Assembly (NCBI GenBank): GCA_048270185.1
Contig: JBLWTJ010000001.1
Span: 1,632,001 to 1,696,000 of the forward strand
Source of the DNA: Bacteriovoracaceae bacterium
GTDB lineage: Bacteria > Bdellovibrionota > Bacteriovoracia > Bacteriovoracales > Bacteriovoracaceae
Direction: 5' to 3'
Length of the DNA: 64,000 nt
Below the pieces are notes generated by a model. The model was not told the origin of the DNA. It searched no databases and saw nothing but the letters and a program-made list of their open reading frames with translations. Position numbers and translations under genes: made by a program. Below are positions 1 to 29,474 of the stretch, in pieces. Position 1 is the first letter of the stretch, and every line of letters begins with the position of its first letter.

Positions 1-847
1 CCTTACGATAATAGAATATCCCAGCTATTGGTAAAAAAAGGGCGAGCCAAAGGTTCCACTGATTTATCTGAAAAGGTACTTGATGTAGATCCCAATTCTT
101 TAAGTAAGCAATGAAATGTTGTTTATCAAATAGAAATCCTTCTGGGGAATTAAAATCAAATGTTAGCACTGTAAATAGCACCGAAAAGGTGAGCCCGATA
201 CTATACGACTTTATTTCAGATTTTGAGATCTTAATATTTTTAAAATAGATTAAAATAATATATGCAAGAGCAATGGCCCCATTTAGCCAGATCCCAAGAG
301 TAATATGAAAGACTGGAGCCAGTCCTATTAAAAAGAATCGACCAACATGCTTTGTACAAAAGAAAAGAGAAAGAACAATACTACATGCAGAAAGTCCTAA
401 TTGTCCTTGAGGTGTTCTTGTATCAATTAGAGAGATATCATAGTTTGCACCAAAATCAATTAAACGAAATTTTTCAATTATTATTGCGACAGGAATCGCC
501 AAGAAGCTTCGATGAATGATATAAGAGCTCAGCCCCAATGCAATCATACTAAGAGCACCTAAGAGCATCGAATTAAATATTGCTATCGTCTGTAGACTAA
601 AGCCTAAACTTAATAAAACTCGATCAATAAAATAATACAGACTATTTAATTTTAGCTGGAAATAATACTGAGGGGACTTGAAAGGGTATTCGATAAGCCC
701 AGCCTTAAGCATACTGTTTTCAACAATATCATCCCAAGCGATAAAATGTGTACCGCCTAAGAAAATCCCATATAATGCGAGAATGATAATAATAATTGGT
801 AATTTATACTTAGAAGCTAAAAATCTAAGTCTTTTCATGTACCACAT
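1..847 (-). CDS. Polytopic membrane protein, possibly GT-C-fold glycosyltransferase (runs off the left edge)
   Basis: Not in ORF track. Read by hand from ATG at 847 (TAATG overlap with upstream stop; alternative ATG 838): MWYMKRLRFLASKYKLPIIIIILALYGIFLGGTHFIAWDDIVENS...FHITLGIWL... open to position 1, many hydrophobic segments, acidic pair after first TM. Confidence 0.7.
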   Translation of the reverse strand, partial: MWYMKRLRFLASKYKLPIIIIILALYGIFLGGTHFIAWDDIVENSMLKAGLIEYPFKSPQYYFQLKLNSLYYFIDRVLLSLGFSLQTIAIFNSMLLGALSMIALGLSSYIIHRSFLAIPVAIIIEKFRLIDFGANYDISLIDTRTPQGQLGLSACSIVLSLFFCTKHVGRFFLIGLAPVFHITLGIWLNGAIALAYIILIYFKNIKISKSEIKSYSIGLTFSVLFTVLTFDFNSPEGFLFDKQHFIAYLKNWDLHQVPFQINQWNLWLALFLPIAGIFYYRK

Positions 848-2352
848 TAATCGCCTAGAATACGCCTTTTAAGTCTTACTTTATTCATACGATCAACATG
901 TTCTCTCGTCGATTTACCAAATTTCTTCTCAATTCTTTCCAGATATTTCGGATCATGAAAGTAAGTGATATAGGCTTGATCTCTAAAATTGAGGACAGTT
1001 GCACCATCAACTAAGCCTGTATGCATTGGGAAAGTCTCATAAGCAAGTTGTGCATATCCTCCCCATGTTTCAGGAAGTGGTATTCCTTGATCTAACGCTT
1101 TCTGATAAAGAGTTGATCCAGGATAGGCCATTCCACTAGTAAAGTTGATATAATCAAGTTCGAGGGCCATAGCTAGATCAAGTGTCTCTTGCATTCTTTC
1201 GACATTATCGTCAGGTAGTCCAAATACAAAGTTACCAATAATATTGATTCCATGCTTCTTTAATCTTTCAACCTGTGTCTCAATGGCATTATCTTTAATT
1301 TTCTTATTTGCAGTTTCTTGCACAACTGAATTAGCTGTTTCAATACCGATACACACCCATCTGATACCAGCTTTTTTAAACTTCATAATAAGATTTTCAC
1401 TTAAAGTATCAACACGAGAGTGGATATAGATATTGAGATCGTAATTTCTTTCAATTAGACCATCGCAAATATCATTAACATGTTTACGATTCATGATAAA
1501 AATTTCATCTGCGAATTTGATATGCTTTATACCATATTCCTTCACCATGATATCAATTTCTTTTAAAATGAACTCTGGCGACCAATAGCGATAGCTGTTT
1601 CGATTCTTGGGCATATCCATAAGCGACTCACCATCTCTAAAGGGAGCCTGAATACAACAGAAATTACACTGAAAAGGACAACCTAGAGTTGTATAGATAG
1701 CGGCGTATGGCTGCCTTGAATCGAGACCAAAACCATGCCAATTATGAGCACGATATTTTTCAACTGGAATTAGATGCCAAGGAAGCCCTGGCATTTCATT
1801 ATCAAGATCTTCGACAAGAGGTGCCGGATCAGTTTTTAGCGCTTTACCTTTATATTCAAAAACTAATCCTTTAACTTTTAAAAGATCATCATCTGTATAA
1901 GAATCTTGTTTTAATACATTTAGAAGACCTTCTAATGTATATGGACCTTCTCCTGAACAAACAAAATCAACACGCTCTTCTTTGAGTGTTTTGAAAGGAA
2001 GGGCCGAAACATGCCCCCCAATAATGATAATTTTTTGATCTGGCAGTAAATCTTTGATTGCATTTATTGTTGCAAGGGCCGGCTCCATTGTTTGAGTCGA
2101 AGCAGATGGATTATGTCCGTAAACAACAAGTGCCACAAGTTTTGGATTTTTTTCTTTAACAACTTTAGCTGCTTCAACAGGTGCCAATTCAAGAACATTT
2201 GTATCAAGAATATCCGCATCAAAGCCTTTATTGAGTGCAAAGTTTGTTAAGAGCCCACCCCAAATTGGAGTCTCGTATGCCGTCAAGTCCGAATCATGCA
2301 GGACCTGATATGTAATTCCTCTACCACCTGGATTTATAACAAGTAAATCCAT
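847..2352 (-). CDS. B12-binding domain radical SAM enzyme (class B methyltransferase-like)
   Basis: N-terminal cobalamin-binding region (GGHVSA, GEG), CPFQCNFC motif, GIET and GNFVFGLP motifs. Confidence 0.9.
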   Translation of the reverse strand: MDLLVINPGGRGITYQVLHDSDLTAYETPIWGGLLTNFALNKGFDADILDTNVLELAPVEAAKVVKEKNPKLVALVVYGHNPSASTQTMEPALATINAIKDLLPDQKIIIIGGHVSALPFKTLKEERVDFVCSGEGPYTLEGLLNVLKQDSYTDDDLLKVKGLVFEYKGKALKTDPAPLVEDLDNEMPGLPWHLIPVEKYRAHNWHGFGLDSRQPYAAIYTTLGCPFQCNFCCIQAPFRDGESLMDMPKNRNSYRYWSPEFILKEIDIMVKEYGIKHIKFADEIFIMNRKHVNDICDGLIERNYDLNIYIHSRVDTLSENLIMKFKKAGIRWVCIGIETANSVVQETANKKIKDNAIETQVERLKKHGINIIGNFVFGLPDDNVERMQETLDLAMALELDYINFTSGMAYPGSTLYQKALDQGIPLPETWGGYAQLAYETFPMHTGLVDGATVLNFRDQAYITYFHDPKYLERIEKKFGKSTREHVDRMNKVRLKRRILGD

Positions 2353-2361: not shown

Positions 2362-3291
2362 TTATAATTCTAAAATAGTTCCAACAATGCTATTAACGTC
2401 AAGGCCGTATAGACTCTGCATGTGCTCACGTCCGCCATATTTGTAGCAATAGCCTTCGTTGAAATTTAATCCCATACGCTTTACTGGCATTTGGATATTA
2501 TTATCAGCTAAGACCTCTAAGATATAACTTCCAAAACCACCTTTTAACTCGTGTTCTTCTAAAGTTACAACTCTCTTATACTGAGATAGATTTTTAGCTA
2601 ATTCTTTTTCAGATGTTGGAATTGTATAAACATCAACAACACCAGCATTAATTCCGTTTTTCTTTAGTTCGTCTGCAACTTCAAATGCGCGGTAAACCAT
2701 ATTACCTGTTGCAACAATACAAAGATCATTACTTTCTTGAAATGATTTAAAACCAATAGTGAAATCGTCACTTTCAGTATAGATATCTTCTGATGTTTTT
2801 CGATCAAGTCGAATATACATCGGATAGTCAGCATTAGGAGAAGCCTCGGCGAAATATTTTGCCATTACACCATCTGTTATATTGTGAATTTTCAAACGTG
2901 GTAGCGCTCTAAGAATCGTAATGTCTTCTACTGTATGGTGAGTCGGGCCCGAGTCATCATAACTAAGACCTGCTCCAACCCCAACGATTGTAACAGGAAT
3001 ATTCATTGCACAGATATTAAGTCTAATTTGTTCATAACATCTTAGTGTAATGAAGTTAGCAATGGCATGAACATAAGTCTTCTTACCTTCATAACTCATA
3101 CCTGCAGCCAGTGTAATCGCTTGTTGTTCAGCAATACCAACATTAATATACTGAGAAGGTAAGTCTGAACGAAACTTATCAAGAGAAGGAGCTCCTTGAT
3201 CTGCAGAAATAAAGATAAGGTCCTTATCTTCTTTTGCTTGTGCATATAATGCATCAAAGAATATATCTCTTTGTGTTTTTAGCTTTTTCAT
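2362..3291 (-). CDS. Transketolase-like C-terminal subunit
   Basis: NVGIAEQ, GPTHH, YIRL, LEEH..GGFGS motifs. Confidence 0.9.
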   Translation of the reverse strand: MKKLKTQRDIFFDALYAQAKEDKDLIFISADQGAPSLDKFRSDLPSQYINVGIAEQQAITLAAGMSYEGKKTYVHAIANFITLRCYEQIRLNICAMNIPVTIVGVGAGLSYDDSGPTHHTVEDITILRALPRLKIHNITDGVMAKYFAEASPNADYPMYIRLDRKTSEDIYTESDDFTIGFKSFQESNDLCIVATGNMVYRAFEVADELKKNGINAGVVDVYTIPTSEKELAKNLSQYKRVVTLEEHELKGGFGSYILEVLADNNIQMPVKRMGLNFNEGYCYKYGGREHMQSLYGLDVNSIVGTILEL

Positions 3292-4130
3292 TTCTTTATA
3301 CCAACTTTGTTTTCATTAAGTTCTTTAAGTGCTTTTTCGACATCTTCACCGGAAGGTGCAACAGCATGCCATAAAGGGTGGTTGCTCATAAACTCAACAC
3401 CTTTACCTTTAATCGTTTCACAGATAATTACTTTTGGAGCTGTTGTCTTTCTCGCCCTAACATCTTTTAAAGCGGCCATAATTTCTTCAATACTATGACC
3501 GTCAACAGTTGTTACTTCCCATCCAAAACTCTTCCATTTTTCATCAAGTGGTTCAATAGAAAGTGAATTTTCAGTAAAGTGTGTCGCACAAAGATAATTA
3601 CGATCAACAATTGCAACAAGATTATTTAAATTATTATGTGCTGCAAACATTGCTGATTCCCAAATTGAACCTTCATAGCACTCACCATCACCAAGAAGCG
3701 CAAAAGTCAGAGGAAGAGTACGATTCATTTTATGTGTTAAAGCAATTCCAGTTGCTACACCTAAACCATGTCCAAGAGATCCTGTCGTAAATTCGACTCC
3801 CGGAACATCGTGTTGTAAGTGAACGCCAAAAATTCCATCTGCTTTACAAAACTTCCAAATCTCATCGCGATCATAGAAGCCTAGATCCCCTAGGATCGTA
3901 TAAAGAATAACACTGGCCTGACCTTTTGATAGAATGAAACGATCACGGTCAGCATCCTTATCATCGTCTTTATTAAATCTCATTACTCCACCGTAGTAGA
4001 GTGCAACAAGAATTTCTGCACACGAAAACGAAGAAGTCACATGTCCTGTTCCTGCGTTTGCACACATTCTAAGAACCAACTCCCTGATCTCATGGCATTT
4101 TTCTTTTAATTCTAAGTAGTTTTCACTCAT
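3288..4130 (-). CDS. Transketolase-like N-terminal (ThDP-binding) subunit
   Basis: DRDRFILSKG, TGSLGHGL, GDGE...N ThDP motif, TIKGKG. Confidence 0.92.
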   Translation of the reverse strand: MSENYLELKEKCHEIRELVLRMCANAGTGHVTSSFSCAEILVALYYGGVMRFNKDDDKDADRDRFILSKGQASVILYTILGDLGFYDRDEIWKFCKADGIFGVHLQHDVPGVEFTTGSLGHGLGVATGIALTHKMNRTLPLTFALLGDGECYEGSIWESAMFAAHNNLNNLVAIVDRNYLCATHFTENSLSIEPLDEKWKSFGWEVTTVDGHSIEEIMAALKDVRARKTTAPKVIICETIKGKGVEFMSNHPLWHAVAPSGEDVEKALKELNENKVGIKK

Positions 4131-5263
4131 ATATTCTCACTATGTTTAGAGATCACATCTCTAAATTTCTCTATTACTGTATTAATTTGGTCCTTAGTTA
4201 AGCTTAGCCCACTTGGTAAATAAAAACCATAGTTTGCAAGTTTTTCAGCTACAGGGTGAGAATCTCGACTAAAGAGTCCCATGTCTTGGTATATCGGTTG
4301 CTTATGGAGTGGCCAAAAAAATGGGCGATTACCAATTCCTGCATCTGTTAGAGATTTCATAACCTTCTCAGGTTCAGGGAATACTTCAGAGTCAAGAACG
4401 ACACCATAGGCCCAGTATATATTTTGAGCGTAGTCAGTTTGCTCAATGGGCAGGCTCACACCTTTAAGATCCTTGAAAGCTTTAGTGTACATATTCCCCA
4501 TCGTCCGCTTTCTTTCAACAAATTGTGGGAGTGTTTCAAGTTGTGCCAGGCCAACGGCAGCCTGCAGATTTGTCATTCGAGCATTCTGTCCAATATCATC
4601 GTGACGAAAGCGCCTCCCCGACATAAAACAATGATTTCTTAGACTTCGACATTTATCTGCAATGGTATCTTCATTAGTTAGAATCATACCACCTTCGCCA
4701 GTAGTAATATGTTTATTCGCATAGAAGCTAAAAATACTAATATCACCAAGTCCACCACAAGGTTGATCTCGATAAGTTTGCCCGTGCATCTCCGCGGCAT
4801 CTTCAATAATTTTTAAATTAAATTCTTTAGCGATATTGAGTATTTCATCAACCAAGCAAGGTAAACCATAGAGATGTACCATCATAATAGCTTTAGTCTT
4901 AGGTGTTATTTTTGCTCGAATATCTTCAACACTCATATTCCAAGTGTCTTCATATGAATCCACCAGAACTGGGACAAGACCATTTTTTATAATTGCATTG
5001 GAGCATGAAATAATCGTTAGGCTTGGAACAATAATTTCATCACCTTCACATAGACCAAGTGACTTAATTGCAATTTCAAGTGCAGCAGTTCCGCTTGAAA
5101 CAGAAATACCATGTTTGCGATTACAATAGGCCGCCAGTTGATTTTCAAATTCAGAAACAAATCGTCCTTCACATGATACCCAACCAGTATCGATACACTC
5201 ATTCAAATATTTCTTTTCATTGCCAATAAAAATAGGAGTATTTACAGGTATAAATTGATCCAC
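4127..5263 (-). CDS. DegT/DnrJ/EryC1/StrS aminotransferase (perosamine synthase-like)
   Basis: SSGTAAL, IEDAAE, SFYANKHITTGEGG, LPSG. Confidence 0.92.
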   Translation of the reverse strand: MDQFIPVNTPIFIGNEKKYLNECIDTGWVSCEGRFVSEFENQLAAYCNRKHGISVSSGTAALEIAIKSLGLCEGDEIIVPSLTIISCSNAIIKNGLVPVLVDSYEDTWNMSVEDIRAKITPKTKAIMMVHLYGLPCLVDEILNIAKEFNLKIIEDAAEMHGQTYRDQPCGGLGDISIFSFYANKHITTGEGGMILTNEDTIADKCRSLRNHCFMSGRRFRHDDIGQNARMTNLQAAVGLAQLETLPQFVERKRTMGNMYTKAFKDLKGVSLPIEQTDYAQNIYWAYGVVLDSEVFPEPEKVMKSLTDAGIGNRPFFWPLHKQPIYQDMGLFSRDSHPVAEKLANYGFYLPSGLSLTKDQINTVIEKFRDVISKHSENI

Positions 5264-5398: not shown

Positions 5399-6352
5399 TT
5401 GTTAATGCTTTCAGCTGTAACACCATTAAAATTGTCCTTACTTGGTGGGGGCTCTGACTACCCTCTTTGGTTTCACAAATTTGGTGGACGAGTGCTTGGA
5501 GCATCAATTAACCTCTATACGAAATGGCAGTTAAACTCCGCTGAAACTTCACTCACTCAGAAAGAAAATTTTCTAATTAATCAAATTCAAGATTTTACCA
5601 ATTTAGAATTTCCAGAACAGACATATCTATCAACAAACTCGAGTGAATTACTTCAAAAGGGAGCTGGAGCAAGCTCTGCATCCATACTAAGCCTATTAGC
5701 TCTTATTCACGTATCTAACGGTATGGATAAAACAAACCTAGAATTAGCTAATATGGCCATTGAATTTGAGCAAAGACATCTTGGTCTAAATGTTGGTAAT
5801 CAAGATCAGCTTCTTTCATCAATTGGTGGAATAAATAAAATTATTTTTAATACAGACGGAACATCTGAGATCACACCTTTCACACTACCGGCCCAGGCCC
5901 TACACTCACTAAATCAACATTTGATTCTCATCGATACCAATCAAGGCCATCTTAATCGCCATATAATCAGCAATGATTATATAAACGATAATATTCGTCA
6001 TGAGAGACAAATTAAGAGATTGATGGAATTGGCAACACAAGGTTGCGATATAATTCATAAAACAGATGCAGTTGAGCATTTAGGTTCACTATTAAATGAG
6101 GCTTGGTCCCTTAAGAAAGAACTAAGTCCTAATATGAGTAATTCATCAATTGATGAAATCTACAGTGCCATCAAATCAAAGGGTGCTTTTGGTGCTAAGC
6201 TATTAGGAGCCGGCGGTGGTGGTTTTATTCTTGCTATTGCAAACCCTGATAGCCAGAGAGAAATTACAAAAATACCAAATATAAAGACATATGATATTTG
6301 TATCGAAAATAGTGGTTTAACAATCAATAAGGCAAGTGTTAATGAAAATTGA
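5399..6352 (+). CDS. GHMP sugar kinase (HddA/heptose-7-phosphate kinase-like)
   Basis: GGGSDYP, GNQDQ, GAKLLGAGGGG; ATP-loop motif divergent (KGAGASSA). Confidence 0.85.
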   Translation: MLMLSAVTPLKLSLLGGGSDYPLWFHKFGGRVLGASINLYTKWQLNSAETSLTQKENFLINQIQDFTNLEFPEQTYLSTNSSELLQKGAGASSASILSLLALIHVSNGMDKTNLELANMAIEFEQRHLGLNVGNQDQLLSSIGGINKIIFNTDGTSEITPFTLPAQALHSLNQHLILIDTNQGHLNRHIISNDYINDNIRHERQIKRLMELATQGCDIIHKTDAVEHLGSLLNEAWSLKKELSPNMSNSSIDEIYSAIKSKGAFGAKLLGAGGGGFILAIANPDSQREITKIPNIKTYDICIENSGLTINKASVNEN

Positions 6353-7424
6353 TTTCTTAAATTTATCAATTGATAAACAAGAAGAAAGAGATAAGTACTT
6401 AGCAATTTTAAATGAAGTTTTAATACATGGCCGAATAATTAATGGGCCAGAACTTACAAACTTTGAAAATAACATCGCCCAGTACCTATCAGTAAAGTAC
6501 GCCATTGGAGTTTCCAACGGAACTGATGCCTTGTACCTAGCTCTTAAAGCACTTGGTATTGGTCAAGGGGATGAGGTCATCATTCCTTGCCTATCATGGT
6601 TATCAACGGCCCACGTTGTCCAAGAAATTGGTGCTACTCCTGTTTTTGCAGATATAGGTGATGACTTAAATATAAGTTTAGACTCGATAATAAACCTCAC
6701 AACAGATAAGACAAAGGCCATAATCTGTGTCCACTTCATGGGGAGACCTTGTGAAATGAAGACACTCTCTCAATACGCAAAAGATAATGAGCTTTATTTA
6801 ATTGAAGATGCATCCCAATCATTTGGAGCTCAATACAATGGTCAAAGAACTGGAGCTTTAGGAGATATAGCTTGTTTTAGCTTAAATCCAATGAAGGCCT
6901 TTGGCGCTCTTGGTGAAGCTGGACTAGTCACGACTAATAATGAAAAAATTAAACAGAAGATACATGAATTAAGATATTGTGGGATGATTGATAAGCAATA
7001 CTCTTCTGAGAGCAGTTTAAATTTTCGAATGGATACAATTCAAGCGGCTTTTCTTTCTTATCGACTAAAAAATATTGATGAGACTATAACTAGAAGAGCA
7101 AATATAGCGAAGAAGTACGATCTTAACTTTCCATTAGAAAATAAATTACCAGAAATTCAAAAGAATTGTATTTCTTCACACTATGGCCATACCCTACTCG
7201 TAAATAACAGAGATGAATTCATCAAGTCCATGAAAGACTTTGGTATTGAAACAAAGATTCAACACTATCCTCTTATGTGTGACCAAAGAATCTATATGGA
7301 TTGTCGTGCTGAAAAAGAGAATGGAAGTAATATAGTCGAAAAAATAATCAACATTCCATGTCATGAAAATTTATCATCAGAAGAAGTAAAATATATTATC
7401 AAGTGTGTTTCGGAGTTACTGTGA
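6336..7424 (+). CDS. DegT family aminotransferase
   Basis: SNGTDAL, IEDASQ, SLNPMKAFGALGEAG; likely start ATG 6342. Confidence 0.92.
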   Translation: MLMKIDFLNLSIDKQEERDKYLAILNEVLIHGRIINGPELTNFENNIAQYLSVKYAIGVSNGTDALYLALKALGIGQGDEVIIPCLSWLSTAHVVQEIGATPVFADIGDDLNISLDSIINLTTDKTKAIICVHFMGRPCEMKTLSQYAKDNELYLIEDASQSFGAQYNGQRTGALGDIACFSLNPMKAFGALGEAGLVTTNNEKIKQKIHELRYCGMIDKQYSSESSLNFRMDTIQAAFLSYRLKNIDETITRRANIAKKYDLNFPLENKLPEIQKNCISSHYGHTLLVNNRDEFIKSMKDFGIETKIQHYPLMCDQRIYMDCRAEKENGSNIVEKIINIPCHENLSSEEVKYIIKCVSELL

Positions 7425-7849
7425 AACCTGCTTATGAATTCGTTTTACCACAAGAGCAAGTCATCACATCAAAGTTATTAAGTGACTTGAGAAAAAAGGC
7501 CATGGAACACCCAACTGGTGTCTATCGTTACAATTTTCATGAAAGCTTAGAAGCAGCGAAGCAAGAGATGATCATCTGCTTAACGAGTCGTAGTATCTGC
7601 AATATACATAAACACCTTGATAAAGACGAAATAATCGAAATACTTGAAGGCACTGTAGAAATATCAAAATACAACGATAATTTATCGATCGATGAGACTA
7701 TAACATTGTCGTTATTAGGCGTGAGCCAAATTGAGTTAAAGAAAAATTCAATTCATTCAGTTAAAGTCATTGGCGATTACGCGATAATAAGAGAATTAAC
7801 AACTGGCCCATTTATCAAAGAAAATTGTCTCATTTTAGGAAAATGTTAA
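7421..7849 (+). CDS. WbuC-like cupin-fold protein
   Basis: RYNFH, HKH..KDE...LEG, H.V, E..GPF; GTG at 7421 with GGAG RBS, overlapping the upstream stop. Confidence 0.75.
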   Translation: MKPAYEFVLPQEQVITSKLLSDLRKKAMEHPTGVYRYNFHESLEAAKQEMIICLTSRSICNIHKHLDKDEIIEILEGTVEISKYNDNLSIDETITLSLLGVSQIELKKNSIHSVKVIGDYAIIRELTTGPFIKENCLILGKC

Positions 7850-8949
7850 TGGAGAGCATGCTAGAGATTGAATATAAGAAAGTTATATCGGAGTTGATCT
7901 TTGGCAGAGATGATTTAGCAGCAATAGCACTATACGAATCAGGAACAACGGCCCTTTATGCATTATTAAAGTCCTTTGATATAGGCTCTAATGACGAAGT
8001 CATTATCCAGGCATTCACTTGTAGTGAAGTACCAAGTGCAATTATTAGCACAGGAGCAACACCAATCTATGCAGATATATCAATCGACACGCTAACAGCA
8101 TCACTTAATTTCATTAAACCTCTAATAAGCTCAAATACAAAAGCAATCGTGATTCAAAATACATTTGGACACGTTGAAGATATCTATGAAATAAAGGAAG
8201 AGTTTCCCCATTTGATTATAATCGAAGATGGCGCCCATGCCTGTACAGAAATCCAAGTCGACCAAGGGAAATTAATAGCTGATGCTGCTTTTTATTCAAC
8301 ACAATATAGTAAACTGTACTCAACAGTTTCAGGTGGTGTTAGCCTATGTCAAAAAGAAGATATACAAAAGAGTCTTCTTAACTTTAACACGACATCTACA
8401 GTTTCTTCATTCAAGCAAAGATTTAAAAAGACAATTTATGATTATTTATCAAACTCAAAGCTCTACTATTGGTCGAGAAGTTACAATAATCAAAAAAATC
8501 ATTCTCCAGTTAGAGCATTCCCATCTAAAAGGCCATCAGCTTTTTCATTAAAAGAAGGAATAAGGGAAATCTTAGACATAAGACACAATCTTAGTCATCG
8601 CCGTCAAGTAGCAAAAGCCTACGAGATTTTTTTTAAAGATCATAAAAAAGAACAATTTTATAATGACATAAGAAGAACAGATACTTTTTCACACTTTCCA
8701 ATTAGAGTAAAAAATAAAGAAGATTTTATCGTGAAGGCCAAATCTGCAAACTTATTTTTCTATGACTGGCCACTAAGACCGGTCCCTCACATAGAAACTG
8801 AAGAATATATGATAAACAGAGACAGTTTACATAATTCAATTCAACTAATAAATGAAGTCATTAGCTTACCCACATCAAGAGATGTGAATCGTGATAAATT
8901 AAAGAATATACTCGAATTTTTAAACGAAAATATCGACGATCTAATCTAA
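7825..8949 (+). CDS. DegT family aminotransferase (divergent)
   Basis: SGTTAL, QAFTC, IEDGAH, STQYSK catalytic Lys, SLPT; true start probably 7843-7858. Confidence 0.82.
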   Translation: MSHFRKMLMESMLEIEYKKVISELIFGRDDLAAIALYESGTTALYALLKSFDIGSNDEVIIQAFTCSEVPSAIISTGATPIYADISIDTLTASLNFIKPLISSNTKAIVIQNTFGHVEDIYEIKEEFPHLIIIEDGAHACTEIQVDQGKLIADAAFYSTQYSKLYSTVSGGVSLCQKEDIQKSLLNFNTTSTVSSFKQRFKKTIYDYLSNSKLYYWSRSYNNQKNHSPVRAFPSKRPSAFSLKEGIREILDIRHNLSHRRQVAKAYEIFFKDHKKEQFYNDIRRTDTFSHFPIRVKNKEDFIVKAKSANLFFYDWPLRPVPHIETEEYMINRDSLHNSIQLINEVISLPTSRDVNRDKLKNILEFLNENIDDLI

Positions 8950-10583: not shown

Positions 10584-10691
10584 CTAACTATAGTTTATAA
10601 TAACTTATAGATAATTACATTTATTATTAGTTAGAAATGATTTACCTGTTTGAGATTAGTTTTTATACAGTTGTAATGTACTAACTGACTA

Positions 10692-12675: not shown

Positions 12676-12712
12676 AGGGAAGCCCTTTCTTGACTTGATA
12701 AATATAGTTTAA

Positions 12713-17502: not shown

Positions 17503-17512
17503 TTCTAACCTT

Positions 17513-19168: not shown

Positions 19169-19171
19169 ACC

Positions 19172-21441: not shown

Positions 21442-21789
21442 ATGGAAATTATGAAGAAGATTTTTATATATTTATCATTTGTCATGTTATTCCAGAGCTG
21501 TTTGCTCAAGAAAGTCCAAGAATTTAATGAAGATAAACGTTCTAACGACAATACAGACACTAAAATGGATGTAATAGGACGCGGTTACTTTACACATGAA
21601 TCGCAGATATATTTTTCAAATGGAAATGATGCCTTTTGCGCCCTAGAGAGTTGGGAACAACTAGAGTCCTTCTTAAGTAAAGAAAGTATAACTAATCTAG
21701 GTGAACTCGAATTACCTACAATGCAAAAAATGCAAGGACGTTGTACAGAAGAGCTTGTATTTGGGGAGCTTAAATTACTTAGTAAATAG
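21442..21789 (+). CDS. Small lipoprotein, unknown function
   Basis: MKK...hydrophobic...FQSC lipobox. Confidence 0.7.
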   Translation: MEIMKKIFIYLSFVMLFQSCLLKKVQEFNEDKRSNDNTDTKMDVIGRGYFTHESQIYFSNGNDAFCALESWEQLESFLSKESITNLGELELPTMQKMQGRCTEELVFGELKLLSK

Positions 21790-21795
21790 AGCATC

Positions 21796-23193
21796 ATGCA
21801 AAAGTTTAAAAATTATATCCCCTTTATTCTTTTAACTCTAATGGCAATATCCGTCATTCAACTTATATATTTAAGTCATATAAATACAATTAAATATCAC
21901 AAAGAGTTTATTAACTTAAAAACAATTAATAAATATGTTCCCCTTATGGGTGCAGATGAATTCATGACATCAACGGTATCTTTAAATAAGCAATCACTCA
22001 ACCTTGGTGCCTGGCAGGGTTATCATGAGTTAACTTTAAAAGAAGACATTGATATAAAAGACATAGAAATTCAATTTACTACACCAGAAACAAGACGACT
22101 TGAATTGATATTTAAGACAGATCAAGGTGAATATCTATTAAGAGTAACTAATAGCAAGCTCTATCCTTCCATTTTCACCAAACTACAAGCACAAAGATTT
22201 ACAGAAAAGAAAAGATTAAATATTCAAAAATTAATAGAGAAGAATACCCTTAAAGTAGAAAAAAACAATCAAGTATTCGTTATCACATTAAACAATAAAA
22301 TCATCCATCGTTTTAGTCCAAAATATATCTCAAATATCGTACTAAAAGGCAGTCAAAGTACTACAACAATAAAGAATATAAAGATAAATGATAATGTCTA
22401 CTCATTTTCAATCTTCCATAATTGGCAACTTTCAATCATACCATCTCTCTGCGCACTAATAATATTACTTATAATTATCTCACTAATGAGTCGTTATACT
22501 TCCAAAGATTATTCACGCTCATTACTACTATTCTACATTAATATAGCACTAACAACATACTTTGCGTATCACTTCTATGTACAAGCAGGCCGTTACCCTG
22601 AGACCACAAAAGAAAGTCAAATAGAGGAAGAATTATTAATAAAGAACGAATTTGCAAGAATAGAAGAACTTATTAATAAGTCCAATATCGCACCTAGACT
22701 TTTTATCGGATCATCCCAGACGTTCGGCGAAGGAGCTAGTACAAAAAAAGAAACATGGGTCAATCAGCTTTGCCAAAATAATTGTATCAATTCAGGCATT
22801 AGATCTGCAACAACACAAGATTTTTTAGACAATTTTAAGATCTATCAAAATACAAAATTTTCAAAAGTATTTATCAATCTTGCGTATAACGATACTCAAA
22901 GTGATACTCATTCGGCAAACATGAGGAAACTCGTTCAAGAATTCAAACAAATTTCAGAGCAGGTCATACTAATAATAGAGCCCTACAATACGGTATTTAA
23001 CAAATTATCAATTAATCAAGAAAACATAGTAAATACCTGCCAAGAAGCGCAGATTAAATGTATTAATCCAATGAATGAACTTACTGAAAAATATGACAGT
23101 GGTTTTATATGGTGGGATATGATTCACCTAACAGACTATGGTCAGAAGCTAATGGCTGATATCATCAACAAAAGCTTACGTCAAAATTACTAA
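21796..23193 (+). CDS. Membrane-anchored SGNH/GDSL hydrolase or O-acyltransferase
   Basis: FIGSSQTFG, NSG, NLAYND, WWDMIH (DxxH) blocks after three TM segments. Confidence 0.75.
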   Translation: MQKFKNYIPFILLTLMAISVIQLIYLSHINTIKYHKEFINLKTINKYVPLMGADEFMTSTVSLNKQSLNLGAWQGYHELTLKEDIDIKDIEIQFTTPETRRLELIFKTDQGEYLLRVTNSKLYPSIFTKLQAQRFTEKKRLNIQKLIEKNTLKVEKNNQVFVITLNNKIIHRFSPKYISNIVLKGSQSTTTIKNIKINDNVYSFSIFHNWQLSIIPSLCALIILLIIISLMSRYTSKDYSRSLLLFYINIALTTYFAYHFYVQAGRYPETTKESQIEEELLIKNEFARIEELINKSNIAPRLFIGSSQTFGEGASTKKETWVNQLCQNNCINSGIRSATTQDFLDNFKIYQNTKFSKVFINLAYNDTQSDTHSANMRKLVQEFKQISEQVILIIEPYNTVFNKLSINQENIVNTCQEAQIKCINPMNELTEKYDSGFIWWDMIHLTDYGQKLMADIINKSLRQNY

Positions 23194-23225
23194 ATATGTT
23201 ATGATGAATTGCATAAGGAAAAACT

Positions 23226-23729
23226 ATGAAAATCATTTTAATATTTATATTCATCAACTTTATTCCTCTGGCCAATGAGCTACAAAGTAAAGAAGAAACT
23301 AATAATTCAAAATTAATGAATGTCTTTTCTAAGAAAGATGCTAGTTTTCTTGAAGAAGCGTGCATTAAGAAAATTGATTATGTATTCACTATCATTGATG
23401 GAGTTAATTCGATAAACAAAGAAAAATCTATTACAAACCTAAAAAGTAAATATATCCTCGATCAACATGCTTTTCATTTTGACATCAAGATTCTTACCGA
23501 AAAATACAATAATAAAAAATCAAAAGCATATTTCGATGAACTTCTAAAGATCACAAAAAAATATAATATCGACCCACTTAATAAATGTATGATTGATACT
23601 TATCGTGTATTAATGGCCAGACAAGAGTGCCTTAAGTCAGCTAATACTGCGGATAAGAAAAAGAGTTGCGAAGATGGGTTTAAAATTGCTGACGAGAATA
23701 TTCTAGGATTATTCTTCAGTAAAAAATAA
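23226..23729 (+). CDS. Hypothetical exported protein
   Basis: Signal-peptide-like N-terminus, 4 Cys. Confidence 0.6.
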   Translation: MKIILIFIFINFIPLANELQSKEETNNSKLMNVFSKKDASFLEEACIKKIDYVFTIIDGVNSINKEKSITNLKSKYILDQHAFHFDIKILTEKYNNKKSKAYFDELLKITKKYNIDPLNKCMIDTYRVLMARQECLKSANTADKKKSCEDGFKIADENILGLFFSKK

Positions 23730-24740
23730 GAACTCATAGTCACCATAGTAGTCATTCTTATCAAATAGGTACTCCCACTCTCTTGGTGATAGAAAGCTTT
23801 CACATGTTAAGGCCCAGCACTGAAGATTACATAATTCCTCTTCATTTCGATATGATTCAACTGCAAGATAAGATTTCTTTGATACTCGAGTCATTTCTTT
23901 CAAGGCTGCTTCAAGCTCAGGAAGTTCAAAGTTATGAAAGACCATAAGAGATATTGCTAGATCGAATTCCTTATGGCCAAAATCCAACCCTTCTCTAATA
24001 TCTACGACTTTTAAAAACGCCCTTACTTCTTCTTTAGCATCATCAATTGCATGATTTGAAATATCAATTCCTGTAATAGATATGCCTGGCAAGATTCTTT
24101 TAATCTCAAACAAGAGATGGGCCTTTCCACAACCAAGATCTAGGACACTAGACTCATTTGTGAGTCGATACTTATCAATGATCATTTCGGCTAAAGGTTT
24201 CCAACGTCCATCATATTGGTAGCCACCATAACCATATTTTCGCTCACCATCCCAATAATCAAAGTCATATTTTTTTGAAATTTTCATTTCGGATGGCTTC
24301 GTTGCAGACATTCTGGCGAAATAATCTCGTTTTGTGGCGGTATGAAGAGATGTTAGTAGTTCAACACATTTTCCTCTTTTATTTTCTAGAAAGTAATTTA
24401 ATTCATCAAGGTCACTTTCAGTATTTAAGATATAATCTTCACTAACAAAGTGTATTTCAAAATTCTTTTCTTTAACCTTCTTAATGAACTTAGAATACGG
24501 AAATCCTCTATTCTTTAGTATCGAAAGACTAAAAAAAAGTAACTTAGATCCATTTAAACTATCTTCTAGTAAACTATTAAGACTATGCCAGCTTCCATTG
24601 AGGTTAACTTCAGTCATACCAAAACAGAATTCTAACTCTCTTTGAGAACAATATGATCGAAAGACCATATTTTGAATACGATGAGGAACAAATGATCCAT
24701 CAATAACTGAAGAATATAAATAACTATATGCTTTCATCAT
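23709..24740 (-). CDS. Fusion: sporadic carbohydrate cluster protein (LIC12192-like) plus class I SAM methyltransferase
   Basis: N-terminal VPHRIQNMVFRSYC; C-terminal DYWDG.RKYGYGGY.YDGRW and LDLGCGK; N-terminal family recognised from memory. Confidence 0.78.
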   Translation of the reverse strand: MMKAYSYLYSSVIDGSFVPHRIQNMVFRSYCSQRELEFCFGMTEVNLNGSWHSLNSLLEDSLNGSKLLFFSLSILKNRGFPYSKFIKKVKEKNFEIHFVSEDYILNTESDLDELNYFLENKRGKCVELLTSLHTATKRDYFARMSATKPSEMKISKKYDFDYWDGERKYGYGGYQYDGRWKPLAEMIIDKYRLTNESSVLDLGCGKAHLLFEIKRILPGISITGIDISNHAIDDAKEEVRAFLKVVDIREGLDFGHKEFDLAISLMVFHNFELPELEAALKEMTRVSKKSYLAVESYRNEEELCNLQCWALTCESFLSPREWEYLFDKNDYYGDYEFLFFTEE

Positions 24741-25455
24741 CTATATCCCTCTCATATTTAATTGCGAGTCTTGTTTGTATCGATAAATTGATTTTTTCAA
24801 AATACTCAAATAACTTCTTATCGTGATAAGGACTGTGAAAGTTCTTAAAACGAAGATTTAGGCTCACACGCGTAAGCTCTTCTTCATTAACAATATTTCC
24901 ATGAATTAGACCAGGAAAGAAGAAAAGGGCCTGGCCCTCTTTTAGTTCAACAAATTGCCTATTCTCTTTATATTTTTCTTCAATTGAAGAAAGAGTACGA
25001 CTCTTCTTCATTTCTTTGATGATTTGTATCGAATCCTCATATGAGTATAGATAGAAAGATTGTGATTTACTCACGTCCACAAGAGGTATCCATACAACGA
25101 CCTCATAGGGTGAATTACCACAAAGTACATCAGAATGTAGAGGTTGAAGAAAGTCTCCATTTCCAGGAAGATGAATATTTATATTAATTTTTTTCTGAAT
25201 TGCTAATTCTACACCAACGATCTCACTTAGCTGAGACTTTAACTGTTGGTAAATATCTTCTTTGACTTCTTTTATTGATATCTCTGAAATGGCCTTAAGA
25301 CGAATTTCATTAATTTTCGGACCATCAAGTTCACGATGAAGAGTAGAGAAATTAGAAGTACCAACGACCGAAGCGAAGACTTTTTTAATTAAGTCAGGGT
25401 TAAACTCACAAATAGTATAACCTTTTTCGAGGTAGTCTTGTGAATTAAACATCAA
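24724..25455 (-). CDS. 2OG-Fe(II) oxygenase (sporadic carbohydrate cluster type)
   Basis: LHSD, GNSPYEVVVWIPL, HGN..N, TRVSLNLRFK. Confidence 0.85.
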   Translation of the reverse strand: MMFNSQDYLEKGYTICEFNPDLIKKVFASVVGTSNFSTLHRELDGPKINEIRLKAISEISIKEVKEDIYQQLKSQLSEIVGVELAIQKKININIHLPGNGDFLQPLHSDVLCGNSPYEVVVWIPLVDVSKSQSFYLYSYEDSIQIIKEMKKSRTLSSIEEKYKENRQFVELKEGQALFFFPGLIHGNIVNEEELTRVSLNLRFKNFHSPYHDKKLFEYFEKINLSIQTRLAIKYERDIDDESI

Positions 25456-26356
25456 AACGTTCCTTAATAATTGTCCCCATTCTTTCTGGAGTCAGACCTA
25501 ACTGTGCAAAAATCTCTTCTTGTCTTCCATAAATACTTGGATAGCCTTCACCAAGGTGAAAGTGATGAAAATTCTTATTTATCCCATTATCAAAAAGAGT
25601 CGATTTAACACGAGAGCCAAGTCCCCCCTTTTCGAGATGTTCTTCAATAACAACGATATTTTCATACTTGTCTAAATAGTTAACTAACTCATCACTAGCA
25701 AATGGTTGGACCGTTGCAAAATGAAGAACTGAAATAGAATTATTATCATTTTGAATATCAAGACATCGCTGAAGCATAATTCCGGTTGTTATAATTAATG
25801 TACGTCCTAAGCTCTCGCTTGGGTAATAAAGTGCTTTTCCAATTTCAATATCATGACCCTTTGTTACAACTGGATCTCCACCTTTACCAAGACGGATATA
25901 AACAGGACCTTGATGAGATTCCGTTTTCTTAATCAATTGATTCATCTCATTAGCATCAGCGGGTGCAAGAATAGTTAAATTTGGTAATGTTTCTAAGATT
26001 GAAAAATCATCCACACAAGTATGAGTATGCCCTAATGGGCCGTAAACGAGGCCGCCTCCATTTCCATAAAGTCTTACATTGAGATTCTCATAGCAAATAT
26101 CAAGAGCAAGTTGTTCAAAGGCGCGCTTTACGATAAATGAAGCGATTGTATTCACATAAACAATATTACCACTTAAGGCCATTCCTGCGGCCATTCCAAG
26201 AACGTGCCCTTCACTAATTCCTTCCATAAAGAATTGCTCTGGTGCTTGTTCTTTTAGATCAGATAAAACATCAGGACCAAGATCAGAGCCAATAAAGACC
26301 ACGTCCTTATTTTTTAAGGCAAGTTCTGAAATAGTATTTAAACCTGTCTTTCTCAT
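25445..26356 (-). CDS. Transketolase-like C-terminal subunit (second copy)
   Basis: MEGISE, GGGLVYGPLGHTH, YIRLGKG, IEEH..GGLGS. Confidence 0.9.
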   Translation of the reverse strand: MRKTGLNTISELALKNKDVVFIGSDLGPDVLSDLKEQAPEQFFMEGISEGHVLGMAAGMALSGNIVYVNTIASFIVKRAFEQLALDICYENLNVRLYGNGGGLVYGPLGHTHTCVDDFSILETLPNLTILAPADANEMNQLIKKTESHQGPVYIRLGKGGDPVVTKGHDIEIGKALYYPSESLGRTLIITTGIMLQRCLDIQNDNNSISVLHFATVQPFASDELVNYLDKYENIVVIEEHLEKGGLGSRVKSTLFDNGINKNFHHFHLGEGYPSIYGRQEEIFAQLGLTPERMGTIIKERFDV

Positions 26357-27153
26357 TCGATGCCTTTATAAAGTAATTTAATCTCATCTACTGTTAGCTT
26401 ATTCTTATGATGCCAACTTAAATCATTTTCAATCATAGTAAGACCTTGTCCCTTGATCGTATGACAGATAATGCAAAGAGGTTTATTTTGATTTTGATTT
26501 AAGATATCTAATAAAGTCTCACTTGAATTAACCATATCGACTTCGGCCACATCAAAACCAAAACTTCTCCACTTATCAGGAAAAGGTTCGAGTGGACAAA
26601 CTTCACTTACACTACCGTAAGACTGAAGCTTATTATAATCAATGATGACAATCAGATTATCTAATTTGTTCTTAGAAGCTGACAATGCCGCTTCCCAAAC
26701 TGTACCTTCGTTACATTCGCCATCACCAAGGATCGCCACAACTTTCTTATTCGATTTATTCTTCTTATTAGAGCAGGCCATTCCCACTGCAACAGGTAAA
26801 CCGTGTCCTAGAGACCCAGTAGAAAACTCTATACCTGGAACACGCTGGCGCGATGGGTGCCCTCCAAGTATTCCATCTACCTTACATAATTTGTCATATT
26901 CTGATTCATCAAAGAAACCTTTCTCTTTTAAAATCGCATATAGAGAAAGACAGCCATGTCCCTTACTTAAAATAATACGATGTCGGTCTAAACTTTCAAA
27001 ATCGGCAGGAGTTAAATTGTATTTGTAATAATAGAGAGTAACAAGAATTTCCACAAGAGAGTAAGCAGAAGGGAGATGCCCGCGTCCACCGCGAACAAAT
27101 AAATTAAGTGTTTCTTTTCGAATCGTCTTGCATAAATCCTTAAAATCTTTCAT
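26353..27153 (-). CDS. Transketolase-like N-terminal subunit (second copy)
   Basis: GH..SA.S, LSKGHG, GGHP, TGSLGHGL, GDGECNEG. Confidence 0.92.
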   Translation of the reverse strand: MKDFKDLCKTIRKETLNLFVRGGRGHLPSAYSLVEILVTLYYYKYNLTPADFESLDRHRIILSKGHGCLSLYAILKEKGFFDESEYDKLCKVDGILGGHPSRQRVPGIEFSTGSLGHGLPVAVGMACSNKKNKSNKKVVAILGDGECNEGTVWEAALSASKNKLDNLIVIIDYNKLQSYGSVSEVCPLEPFPDKWRSFGFDVAEVDMVNSSETLLDILNQNQNKPLCIICHTIKGQGLTMIENDLSWHHKNKLTVDEIKLLYKGIE

Positions 27154-28501
27154 GTATTAATGATACTACTTTTTGTTGCCAAGACCAATATCTATTCCCT
27201 TGCTCTTTATTTGCAAGCATTTGTTTGAGATATTGATTTGAACGTTCAAAATCACCATCATGTTTTGCCATAATTAGGAGCCATTCAAAGGCAATCAGGT
27301 CATAGTAATTGAGAGTCTGTTTCCAAAATTCTTTCTTATCAGTAGCAAGTTCGCTAAATAAACCAATAAGAGATATGCATTCTTTATCATCTAGATCTTG
27401 ACCAACATGATGAATAGCATTTAAGAAGCTACGACTGAGATCATCATGACCAAACGATTCAAAATCAAAAACATAGAGATGATCATCAATTTTTGAAAAA
27501 TTCTTTCGATGGAAGTCTGGAAAACAAATCGAGCGAGTCATTTGCGTCACTTCTAGCTTATTAATTATTTCTTCAAGAATCTCTTTGTACTGGTTTGGTA
27601 CTTTATTAAGCTTTGATAGTCGATCACCAATATTGTCAATATAAGACTGATTGTTTCTAATACCATGTGAAGCGTAGAAATGAATTTCTTTTCTCTGCAT
27701 TCGATTAAAAAACACTTTAAACGCTTTACAGAACCAGTCATCAAATCGAGTAATCTCTTGATGTTCAATAAAATTTTCTACAAAGAAGCATTCGCCACTT
27801 ATTATAACTTCATGCCTTAATAAGCCAATATTTCTGGCACCTAATTCTCGCTCCACACGATGAATGTCATTAATAATCTTGATAAAAAACTGTTTTTCAA
27901 TTGAACAAAATTTAAAAGAATTGCGTCCTACTGGTGTAATATGTGGACCAATACTATACTTCTTGATAAACCCTAGCAGGTTAAAGATATCATTCCACTT
28001 AAATAAATTGAGAAAGCCTTTATTACGATAAGTTCGATGTATCTTAAAAATACTCGCATCAATATGACTTAGAATATTAGCGAGGTCATCTATAACAATA
28101 TTGAAACCTGATCTATTAATATACTCAATCTTCTCAGAAGACTCTTCGAAAAGATTAATTTTTAGGTGATTAAGCTTACAAGACTTCAATTTTGACAAGA
28201 GTGCCTTATGTAAGTCATAGCGGCCACAATAACTGGTCTTACTTCGATGACTAACTAGCTCAATTTCAAAAATTTCACTATCGACAAGTAGGAGAAACGC
28301 CTCTTCAATAGTAGCTTCTTCAATAAGTTCGCCATAAACTCGCCCCTGTAACCGTAGCCACTCATCATGATTCGTTACATATGATTTAATATCATCTCTA
28401 GTCTGACAATTGGCTATATCAATATTTTCGATTATTGCTGCCTTAGCAAAGAGACCATCATAATCGAGAATAGTATTGTCGATATCAATTGCGATTTTCA
28501 T
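27140..28501 (-). CDS. Fusion: HAD-like hydrolase plus APH/choline-kinase-like phosphotransferase
   Basis: IDIDNTI (DxDxT), VSH, IDD; C-terminal PDFHRKNF and FDFESFGHDD. Confidence 0.72.
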   Translation of the reverse strand: MKIAIDIDNTILDYDGLFAKAAIIENIDIANCQTRDDIKSYVTNHDEWLRLQGRVYGELIEEATIEEAFLLLVDSEIFEIELVSHRSKTSYCGRYDLHKALLSKLKSCKLNHLKINLFEESSEKIEYINRSGFNIVIDDLANILSHIDASIFKIHRTYRNKGFLNLFKWNDIFNLLGFIKKYSIGPHITPVGRNSFKFCSIEKQFFIKIINDIHRVERELGARNIGLLRHEVIISGECFFVENFIEHQEITRFDDWFCKAFKVFFNRMQRKEIHFYASHGIRNNQSYIDNIGDRLSKLNKVPNQYKEILEEIINKLEVTQMTRSICFPDFHRKNFSKIDDHLYVFDFESFGHDDLSRSFLNAIHHVGQDLDDKECISLIGLFSELATDKKEFWKQTLNYYDLIAFEWLLIMAKHDGDFERSNQYLKQMLANKEQGNRYWSWQQKVVSLIHERF

Positions 28502-29474
28502 TTTCGAGATATGTCTTTACAAATTTAACGTTGAAATACTTTAAATCATCCATTGAGTTAGGGAGTTTCCCTTCTTTTAAGGCCTGTGCTAATTCTTTCA
28601 CAGCATCTTCAATTGAATAAAGAGGTTTAAAACCTAATTCTTTTTCAATGAGTTCGCTTGAAATATGATAAGAACGGTTGTCATCAGTTGCAACCGTTTC
28701 GACTTGATCAACCTCACAAATATTACCAATTATTTCAGCAAGCTTTTCAACTGTATGATTTTGGCCGTTAACATTAAAGATTTTCTTCTGAATTTTATCA
28801 GTTGGCATGTCTAATAGATGTAGATATGCACGAACCATATCCTTTATATGAATATTTGGACGCTTTTGTTTTCCACCAAAAACCTTAATACAACCCGTAT
28901 TGATGGCATGATTAGTTAAAATGTTTACAACGACATCTAGTCTTTGCCTACGAGATAGACCACAAACAGTGGCAGGCCTTAAAATCGAAACAATAAAATC
29001 ATTACTGGCATACTTCAGTAGAATATCTTCACATAAAGCTTTGTACTTCGAGTAATCAGTTAAAGGCTCAAGAGATAATCCCTCATGAACATTCGATTCT
29101 TCTTTCACTCCATATACACTCGAAGAGGAAGCATAAATAAACCTAGAGACCCCCGCTTCTTTTGCTGACTGAACCAGCCCTTCAAAACAATCGAAGTTAA
29201 TCGTCTTTGAAAATTCAGGATTGAGATAATAAGAAGGATCATTTGAAATACAAGCGAGGTGAATAACGGTATCAATTCCGTAACAAGACGCTTTGAATGT
29301 ATCTAAGTCTCGAATGTCGGCCTTAATAATTTTAACATCGACTTCATTGAATACAGATTCATCACAATACCAAAAGAGATCATAAACAGTAACTTCATAA
29401 CCTTTTTTACAAAGTTCATGTACTAACTCAACACCAACATAACCAGCTCCGCCAGTTACTAATATCTTACTCAT
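28485..29474 (-). CDS. NAD-dependent nucleotide-sugar epimerase/dehydratase
   Basis: VTGGAGYVG, HLACISNDPS, SSSSVYG, YSKYK. Confidence 0.92.
   Translation of the reverse strand: MSKILVTGGAGYVGVELVHELCKKGYEVTVYDLFWYCDESVFNEVDVKIIKADIRDLDTFKASCYGIDTVIHLACISNDPSYYLNPEFSKTINFDCFEGLVQSAKEAGVSRFIYASSSSVYGVKEESNVHEGLSLEPLTDYSKYKALCEDILLKYASNDFIVSILRPATVCGLSRRQRLDVVVNILTNHAINTGCIKVFGGKQKRPNIHIKDMVRAYLHLLDMPTDKIQKKIFNVNGQNHTVEKLAEIIGNICEVDQVETVATDDNRSYHISSELIEKELGFKPLYSIEDAVKELAQALKEGKLPNSMDDLKYFNVKFVKTYLENENRN

Follow-up and report, generated by a model that had tools for sequence, protein, structure and literature searches.

Here we describe an island of ~59.6 kb whose right half lies at the start of a 64,000-nucleotide window of the genome (G000) of a marine member of the Bacteriovoracaceae, the window being the whole stretch of DNA that was analysed (G000:C1:1632001-1696000). 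The island joins the gene for a long type IV pilin to a broad set of sugar-tailoring enzymes and polytopic proteins of the GT-C glycosyltransferase type, and we propose, with a probability of roughly 0.55, that it carries out a TfpW-like glycosylation of this fibre pilin from lipid-linked single sugars, extended by further GT-C enzymes. We favour this reading because of the GT-C folds, the repeated adjacency of the pilin gene to the GT-C gene GTC5, the excess of GT-C neighbours in a survey of further pilin loci, the location of lipopolysaccharide (LPS) and extracellular polysaccharide (EPS) machinery elsewhere in the genome, a stalk rich in Ser, Thr and glycosylation sequons, and a pilin head that is swapped among strains. 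The lead candidate acceptor is likely the long pilin-fibre encoded by the island, not the major pilin.

A pilin-fibre gene beside GT-C-fold proteins

The pilin gene (19172-21241) encodes a 689-aa protein comprising a type IV leader with an N-methylation motif (PF07963), a disulfide-rich head at residues ~57-308 with four invariant cysteines, a stalk rich in Ser, Thr, Asn and Gly, and a Cys-rich tip. The stalk (residues 309-480) is 23% Ser plus Thr and contains 10 N-x-S/T sequons. The head profile matches 68 of 151 genomes of the family at E<=1e-20; the window protein has no Peptidase_S74 (S74) domain, and its matches to the gp5 beta-helix are weak (E 0.6-0.9). An earlier note on this DNA had placed a type IV pilin-like gene in the middle of the island; the leader bears this out, but the product is a modular fibre, and a short PilA-like gene is found at C4:17941 amongst pilus genes, without a GT-C neighbour. 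The island pilin is thus not the major PilA.

Variation between strains is concentrated in the head. In two public sequencing runs of near-identical strains, X1 and X2, the first of which may be the source sample itself, one contig matches positions 9622-20317 of the window with 2 differences, and positions 20317-21072, which encode pilin residues ~57-308, are replaced by 778 other bases in both runs. X2 additionally holds the head allele of the window with no differences, and contigs bridge the junction of pilin and GTC5 in both runs; no RNA run was listed amongst the holders of this sequence. As the head is replaced between near-identical flanks, these alleles point to recombination focused on the pilin head.

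Five polytopic proteins of 551-620 aa, GTC1 to GTC5, are encoded in the island, and none has a significant match in Pfam or NCBIfam (best, YfhO, E 0.017), so that family scans alone could not class them. The earlier note had suspected two GT-C-like genes in the window, and both match GT-C structures. Positions 1-847 hold only the 5' half of the gene for GTC4, which the window edge cuts. The AlphaFold2 (AF2) model of this 576-aa protein (pLDDT 92, built with 108 homologs) returned only members of the GT-C clan amongst its top 20 VIA structural matches: DPY19 (Z 13.8, root-mean-square deviation (rmsd) 6.3, 431 residues aligned), ArnT (12.9), AftA (12.8), AglB (12.7) and Pmt1 (12.5). Foldseek was concordant, and the Atlas lead was DUF6798 (25% of members). 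The model of GTC5 (pLDDT 72, from 8 sequences) matched ALG12 best by VIA (Z 20.2, rmsd 4.9, 399 aligned), followed by Pmt4 (18.9), OST-B (18.9), AglB (17.6) and, in sixth place, ArnT (16.9), with the next unrelated match at 7.2; its top Foldseek match was ArnT (E 6.7e-4). On these models GTC4 and GTC5 are assigned to the GT-C superfamily by fold, and GTC1, GTC2 and GTC3 are assigned to the same type by homology: GTC1 and GTC2 are paralogs (27%) whose profile matches GTC5 (hhalign 92.8% over 132 columns), and GTC3 is related to proteins annotated as YfhO (4/7 matches). Acidic residues recur in the first external loop, with D36 and D38 of GTC3 present in 4/4 sequences, D43 of GTC2 invariant in 10/10 and E43 of GTC4 present in at least 90% of 108, and Asp35 of GTC5, which follows the first transmembrane helix, is invariant in 8/8. 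A GT-C fold does not by itself name the acceptor. Profiles of GTC5 and GTC3 found no match in a sequence search of the PDB, a word-based homolog search with GTC5 returned only GTC5 itself, and the GTC4 profile drew only rhodopsin and helical-repeat sequences from the PDB, which we judged spurious.

The earlier note had named Wzy or WaaL folds together with an adjoining O-antigen cluster as one outcome that would refute its proposal. WaaL and Wzy are absent from the fold matches listed for GTC4 and GTC5, amongst which the GT-C matches stand far above the rest, and no O-antigen cluster lies beside the island; these results did not refute the proposal. A conventional O-antigen locus with Wzx, a WecA-type protein and WaaL is found at C4:137-167 kb, and C1:1035-1052 kb holds a locus of the Wzy/PglC type. 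Amongst the 28 open reading frames (ORFs) of positions 1-29474, none matched a GT4, Wzx, Wzy or WbaP family, and family scans of the 60-kb island found no Wzx, Wzm/Wzt, Wzy, initiating transferase or GT4, so that the absence of GT4, Wzx, Wzm/Wzt and WbaP reported for the window extends into the left half. The 7 GT4 matches and the single Wzx match of the genome all lie outside the island, and ABC2_membrane has no match in the genome, which is 95.9% complete. In the Wzy/PglC-type region, a single 773-aa protein (L124:506-2824, G000:C1:1035503-1037824) joins three parts, namely a sugar transferase of the PglC type, an acetyltransferase of the PglD type and a DegT aminotransferase.

Pilin and GT-C gene order amongst relatives

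We read the aroBA regions of 14 relatives and ran profile searches in the 151 genomes. The island spans window positions -30157 to 29474 (genome C1:1601843-1661474), contains 51 ORFs, one of them a conserved host gene, and occupies a slot between dapF/tlyA and aroBA-aroC, with aroBA at its right end. A long or medium pilin occupies this slot in 9 of the 14 relatives (G001, G002, G004, G008, G009, G011, G015, G021 and G023); G005 and G006 carry sugar genes at aroBA and pilins on other stretches, and no island was found beside aroBA in G003, G022 and G024. The cargo of the slot is shuffled or replaced from one relative to the next. A recurring core of a B12-binding radical S-adenosylmethionine (radical-SAM) enzyme, a transketolase pair, DegT, HddA/C, both GT2s, a SPASM protein and GTC5, with most enzymes at 40-60% identity, is present in G001, G021, G100, G050 and G127 and partly in G140. 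In G023, the same slot holds three medium pilins, then a 541-aa protein with 8 transmembrane helices and an ABC-2 transporter pair (L048:4430-10360).

Homologs of GTC5 occupy 10 places in 9 of the 151 genomes. Eight of these places are directly behind a long pilin; of the other two, one (G049) lies two genes from a pilin-like fragment and one is a weak copy away from any pilin. G001 supplies a ninth adjacent pair, for a total of 9/11 places in five genera. The ORF gap between the two genes ranges from -55 to +3 bp, and in the window 3 bp separate the stop of the pilin from GTC5, which lies downstream. The comparison across the family proposed in the earlier note therefore ties GTC5 to a predicted pilin gene.

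We then surveyed 40 further high-scoring pilin loci, dropping two with pilins <450 aa and separating 5 with S74 from 33 without, and scored an adjacent protein of 430-800 aa with at least 6 helices. The counts include kin, which are not independent, and we claim no p-value. Such a polytopic protein adjoins the pilin in 17 of the 33 non-S74 loci, compared with 3.2% of genes in this genome, and occurs within four genes of the pilin in 19/33. By Pfam and clustering, the 17 comprise 14 of GT-C type, 1 unclassified protein and 2 UbiA fusions. Amongst 41 membrane proteins near further pilins, 6 were not GT-C by Pfam (an Mrp/NADH subunit, Lnt, DsbD and three UbiA fusions) and were excluded from the GT-C counts. 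Twelve of the 14 adjacent GT-Cs form one family, A4, with FFIFDD in loop 1, ADRYLY and tetratricopeptide repeats (TPRs); the DD is present in 16/17 aligned members and [DE]RxxY/F in 13/17. A4 occurs in 43/151 genomes and was not found in G000. As different GT-C families stand at the pilin, it is the position beside it that is conserved and not the enzyme.

At L099, L115 and L118, three long pilin genes in tandem adjoin a UbiA-family fusion of 510 aa together with an unclassified protein of 8-9 transmembrane helices; these loci possibly encode a route to prenyl-phosphate sugars similar to that which supplies arabinose to TfpW.

Sugar-tailoring enzymes and the proposed pathway

The earlier note had confined the island to positions 1-29474, which are only about half of it, and had advised inspection of the sequence to the left. 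There a further ~30 kb holds 3 GT2, 3 polytopic GT-C-type and 10 radical-SAM genes, a NodU-type carbamoyltransferase and the fourth DegT gene, with no Wzx or Wzy. In total the island encodes 5 GT2s, five polytopic GT-C-type proteins, 13 radical-SAM proteins and 4 DegT proteins, along with the NodU-type enzyme and a Rieske protein. Beside the latter, left of the window, is a 408-aa protein that contains an internal repeat and matches no family (L002:12508-14048); a pair resembling these two proteins is also found near pilins in L107. The features of the right half are as follows.

1-29474, both strands: right half of the island, the left half being at genome C1:1601843-1632000
1-847, minus: 5' half of GTC4, a 576-aa, DUF6798-like GT-C-fold protein (AF2 fold, VIA)
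847-2352, minus: B12-binding radical-SAM enzyme, one of 8 such in the island
2362-4130, minus: split transketolase-like pair 1, C-terminal and N-terminal subunits
4127-5263, minus: DegT-family sugar aminotransferase (PF01041, E 1e-112)
5399-8949, plus: HddA-like GHMP sugar kinase (E 1e-27, below the curated cut-off), DegT, WbuC-family cupin (above cut-off) and divergent DegT
8946-10583, minus: fusion of a GT2 and a radical-SAM/SPASM protein
10692-12675, both strands: radical-SAM/SPASM enzyme (plus) and Gfo/Idh/MocA oxidoreductase (minus)
12713-13693, plus: GtrB/ArnC-type polyprenyl-phosphate sugar synthase with two C-terminal transmembrane helices (homology, transmembrane scan)
13680-15306, plus: NAD-dependent epimerase/dehydratase and HddC-like nucleotidyltransferase (match below the curated cut-off)
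15290-17502, minus: Gmd-like 4,6-dehydratase and NDP-sugar 3-C-methyltransferase (E 1e-44 to D-mycarose 3-C-methyltransferase), in the same gene run as the pilin and GTC5
17513-19168, minus: GTC5, a 551-aa GT-C-fold protein (VIA)
19172-21241, minus: 689-aa modular pilin with N-methyl leader, head, stalk and tip
21442-23729, plus: small putative lipoprotein, SGNH-family membrane protein and 167-aa protein of unknown function
23709-25455, minus: 'sporadic carbohydrate cluster' pair, a TIGR04323-methyltransferase fusion and a TIGR04324 2-oxoglutarate-Fe(II) oxygenase, both above the curated cut-off
25445-29474, minus: split transketolase-like pair 2, a 453-aa protein with no family match and a HAD-like motif recognised by eye, and an epimerase

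Matches to sugar-tailoring families in Pfam and NCBIfam account for 21 of these 28 ORFs, in line with the earlier estimate of about 20, and every ORF named there lies where it had been placed. They comprise the two split transketolase-like pairs, three DegT proteins, the HddA- and HddC-like proteins, the Gmd-like dehydratase, the 3-C-methyltransferase, two epimerases, the oxidoreductase, the WbuC cupin, the SGNH protein, three radical-SAM domains and the TIGR04323/04324 pair. Homologs of the small lipoprotein recur in 7/12 of the relatives' regions.

The two GT2s of the window had both been read as polyprenyl-phosphate sugar synthases, and this holds for one of them. The product of 12713-13693 matches sll0501 (E 7.7e-57) and ArnC (E 3e-30) and has the DxD motif and two C-terminal transmembrane helices by which we recognised the GtrB/ArnC type; it is, by homology, the sole clear GtrB-type synthase of the two. 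The product of 8946-10583 lacks this combination, as its GT2 part has HGQN in place of DxD (the canonical motif is missing in 7/7 aligned sequences) and matches DPM synthase at only E 4.7e-4. It is fused to the SPASM protein only in this genome, amongst the 16 of 151 genomes with a match, and the two are separate genes in relatives. We rejected a frameshift in the assembly as the origin of the fusion, since no indel was seen in 4 public runs, with 103 rows of substitutions lying outside the list viewed. In the left half, AglJ is the nearest match of the GT2 at -3394 (E 4.6e-44, below cut-off), and two further island GT2s have 3-4 C-terminal helices and resemble chain-extending GT2s. Family or fold matches thus show predicted nucleotide-sugar enzymes for activation, dehydration, C-methylation, amination and chain extension, as well as GtrB- and AglJ-type GT2s and the GT-C folds of GTC4 and GTC5.

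The 13 radical-SAM proteins divide into 8 of the cobalamin type (7 by a B12-binding match and 1 by BLAST) and 5 of the SPASM type, and the island holds 7 of the 10 B12-binding matches of the genome. Because CobS was not found in the genome and one BtuB-like gene is present (C1:1258509, below cut-off), the host probably scavenges cobalamin. ThDP (thiamine diphosphate) enzymes of the YerE type build acyl-branched surface sugars (PMC9306805), and the split transketolases may play such a role here.

In the pathway that we propose, the cytoplasmic enzymes, the 13 radical-SAM proteins included, would make several tailored monosaccharides, probably amongst them a sugar derived from GDP-heptose and a 3-C-methyl deoxy sugar, which the GT2s would load onto undecaprenyl phosphate. 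The GT-Cs might flip these products themselves, as proposed for TfpW, after which, in the periplasm, GTC5 would place the first sugar on Ser or Thr (or Asn) of the pilin-fibre anchored in the membrane, and the other GT-Cs would lengthen or branch this glycan or act on further surface acceptors. Coat and swappable pilin head may then vary together under pressure from phage or prey. A bolder version, which we hold to be possible if somewhat doubtful, is that such loci are exchangeable cassettes of fibre plus coat carried by the predatory bacteria of this family, in which a pilin adhesin with a recombining head is glycosylated stepwise by several periplasmic GT-Cs without Wzx or Wzy, one lipid-linked sugar being added at a time after tailoring by up to 13 radical-SAM enzymes. 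In the lumen of the endoplasmic reticulum, ALG3, ALG9 and ALG12 build an oligosaccharide sugar by sugar in this way.

Alternative acceptors and known systems

Several observations weigh against glycosylation of the pilin. Of the long pilin-like genes of this genome, the 5 others inspected all lack a GT-C beside them. Six of the 33 non-S74 survey loci have no such membrane protein in the stretch (2 of these are at contig ends), and only 1 of the 5 further S74 loci has an adjacent GT-C. GTC5 itself stands outside the TfpW-like A4 family, to which it is weakly related (hhalign 48.6%), and has no TPR; 6 weaker matches to its profile are not adjacent to a pilin, although 3 of them share an island with a pilin at a distance of 8-28 kb, and many copies of GTC1/2 lie away from the pilin loci identified here. 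GtrA (PF04138) has no match in the genome, a search whose control was positive in 8/14 and which did not extend to ArnE/F. Moreover, G002, G004, G008, G009 and G011, whose aroBA is 76-81% identical, keep a slot pilin without a polytopic GT-C, and three GT-C profiles found no match in the four of these that were searched. Their pilins end in Peptidase_S74 (E 7e-16; motif in 5/5), which implies a predicted trimer, and their cassette contains at least 7 radical-SAM genes, DegT, an epimerase, a sugar dehydrogenase and deacetylases. It follows that the slot pilin does not require a GT-C, and that radical-SAM and sugar genes can travel with a pilin in its absence. The same cassette, seen at L016:11013-14521 and L017:13686-20000 (G011) and likewise in G002, G004, G008 and G009, further encodes a 183-aa protein whose tail is rich in Cys, next to two radical-SAM genes, together with several products that Pfam does not recognise, and may resemble phage tail-associated modules.

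Given these exceptions, we considered whether the GT-Cs decorate many exported proteins and lipoproteins, the pilin being one acceptor or none. Five GT-Cs of four families exceed the need of one pilin, GTC1/2 homologs are also present at sites apart from the identified pilin loci, the folds are those of Pmt, AglB and DPY19, which glycosylate proteins broadly, and a small lipoprotein co-occurs. We nonetheless consider such a general envelope pathway unlikely, as the adjacency of pilin and GT-C is tight and repeated, with non-orthologous replacement, and the system varies between strains and is absent from close kin, unlike a housekeeping pathway. A shade less probable is that single exotic sugars are transferred, as by ArnT or Gtr proteins, onto lipid A, core or a Wzy-made O-antigen or EPS. 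Consistent with this, ArnT is the top Foldseek match of GTC5, a window GT2 is GtrB/ArnC-like, a GT9 gene is located 8 kb to the left of the island with others inside or beside relatives' islands, and TIGR04323 and TIGR04324 are named from a Leptospira carbohydrate cluster, which we take to be linked to O-antigen. A satellite locus (L121:1467-6479; G000:C1:351467-356479, that is, C1:351-356 kb) points the same way, as it combines GT9 and DegT with a paralog of the island's radical-SAM enzymes and a membrane protein of 501 aa that has 7 transmembrane helices and no Pfam match. Yet ArnT is only sixth for GTC5 by VIA, decoration of LPS leaves the pilin linkage unexplained, and the O-antigen locus has a neighbouring module, separate from the island, at C4:132-135 kb, made up of two DPM-like GT2s and a PMT_2 protein. 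This module (L120:1258-7511; G000:C4:132255-138514), which also encodes an LPG_synthase_TM protein as a possible flippase, is a candidate for lipid A glycosylation.

It is quite improbable, in our view, that the pilin is a mere passenger in a recombination hotspot that collects unrelated surface genes, with the glycan bound for the flagellar sheath, a glycolipid or the like. Almost the whole cargo has been exchanged at ~80% aroBA identity while the pilin stays, the GC content of the pilin gene is 0.40 compared with 0.28-0.39 for the other island genes, and a module of B12-binding radical-SAM enzyme, transketolase, DegT and GT2 is present in two distant phyla, where the 9-15 kb fragments seen contain no pilin. 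Against this, the immediate and often overlapping order of pilin and GT-C is kept across genera while other genes shuffle, and is also found at loci outside this slot. Glycosylation of the pilin-fibre remains our preferred reading. The earlier proposal that sugars are attached to the pilin or another surface polymer is supported in part, by the GT-C folds and the pilin synteny; its picture of single sugars does not do justice to five GT2s and five GT-Cs.

The closest known system is the glycosylation of the group IV pilin of Pseudomonas aeruginosa, which comprises PilA, TfpW and TfpX and in which D-arabinofuranose is supplied on a polyprenyl carrier (bioRxiv 10.1101/2020.04.19.049825). As with TfpW, a GT-C gene lies directly downstream of a type IV pilin gene, the predicted sugar donors are lipid monophosphates and Wzx is absent, and the A4 pilin neighbours of relatives carry the DD motif and TPR tail described for TfpW. 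In contrast, the acceptor candidate is a modular fibre pilin of 500-1200 aa instead of a major pilin, five GT-Cs, five GT2s and 13 radical-SAM proteins replace one GT-C and one sugar, no DprE1/DprE2 arabinose pathway was found amongst the island genes, and GTC5 has one conserved Asp and no TPR match where TfpW has a DDX motif and a C-terminal TPR. The pairing of a GtrB-type GT2 with GT-C-fold transferases likewise recalls GtrA-GtrB-GtrC and ArnC-ArnE/F-ArnT, although no GtrA was found, the components are multiplied, and they are linked to a pilin rather than to LPS genes. The system would accordingly fall outside both TfpW proper (no TPR, no major pilin, no arabinose pathway) and GtrABC (no GtrA), yet may work like them. 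The A4 family, the commonest pilin neighbour, combines TPRs with a DD in loop 1 and [DE]RxxY/F, the last two being motifs M1 and M7 described for the protein O-mannosyltransferases TMTC1-4 (PMC7801869). A4 was not found in this genome, where GTC5 takes its position. In the MAT fibres of Bdellovibrio, tips are swapped on a constant non-pilin carrier with a beta-rich domain after the signal peptide, and neither 'pilin' nor 'glycosyl' occurs in the main text of that report (PMC10769870). A constant N-terminal carrier with exchangeable fibre tips is common to both systems, and the slot pilins of relatives end in the Peptidase_S74 chaperone; here, in contrast, the carrier is a type IV pilin, its N-terminus being a pilin leader and not a beta-rich domain, and the window protein lacks S74.

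Prey recognition and phage avoidance are an open question in predatory bacteria, and pilin glycosylation blocks phage in P. aeruginosa (bioRxiv 10.1101/150227). The locus described here joins a variable pilin-fibre and a variable glycan pathway at one chromosomal slot, with uncharacterised GT-C subfamilies and 13 radical-SAM enzymes that have a plausible common product. If our reading is correct, TfpW-type glycosylation would extend from a single arabinose polymer to a multi-enzyme pathway independent of Wzx and Wzy. On the bolder version given above, the slot could account genetically for differences between strains in prey range or in resistance to phage, and its 13 radical-SAM enzymes, eight of them cobalamin-type in an apparently B12-scavenging cell, may be a source of new radical sugar chemistry. 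Searches of a mainly open-access literature, supplements excluded, listed no paper on this locus, and tables of genome papers may mention it.

Two further features of the window lie beyond the island. Next to its right end, positions 29474-31669 encode an AroB-AroA fusion of 731 aa, the homologs of which are one ORF in G002, G004, G008, G009 and G011 and two genes in other relatives. At 63130-64000 a long acidic, Asp/Thr-rich lipoprotein-like ORF begins and continues past the window edge.

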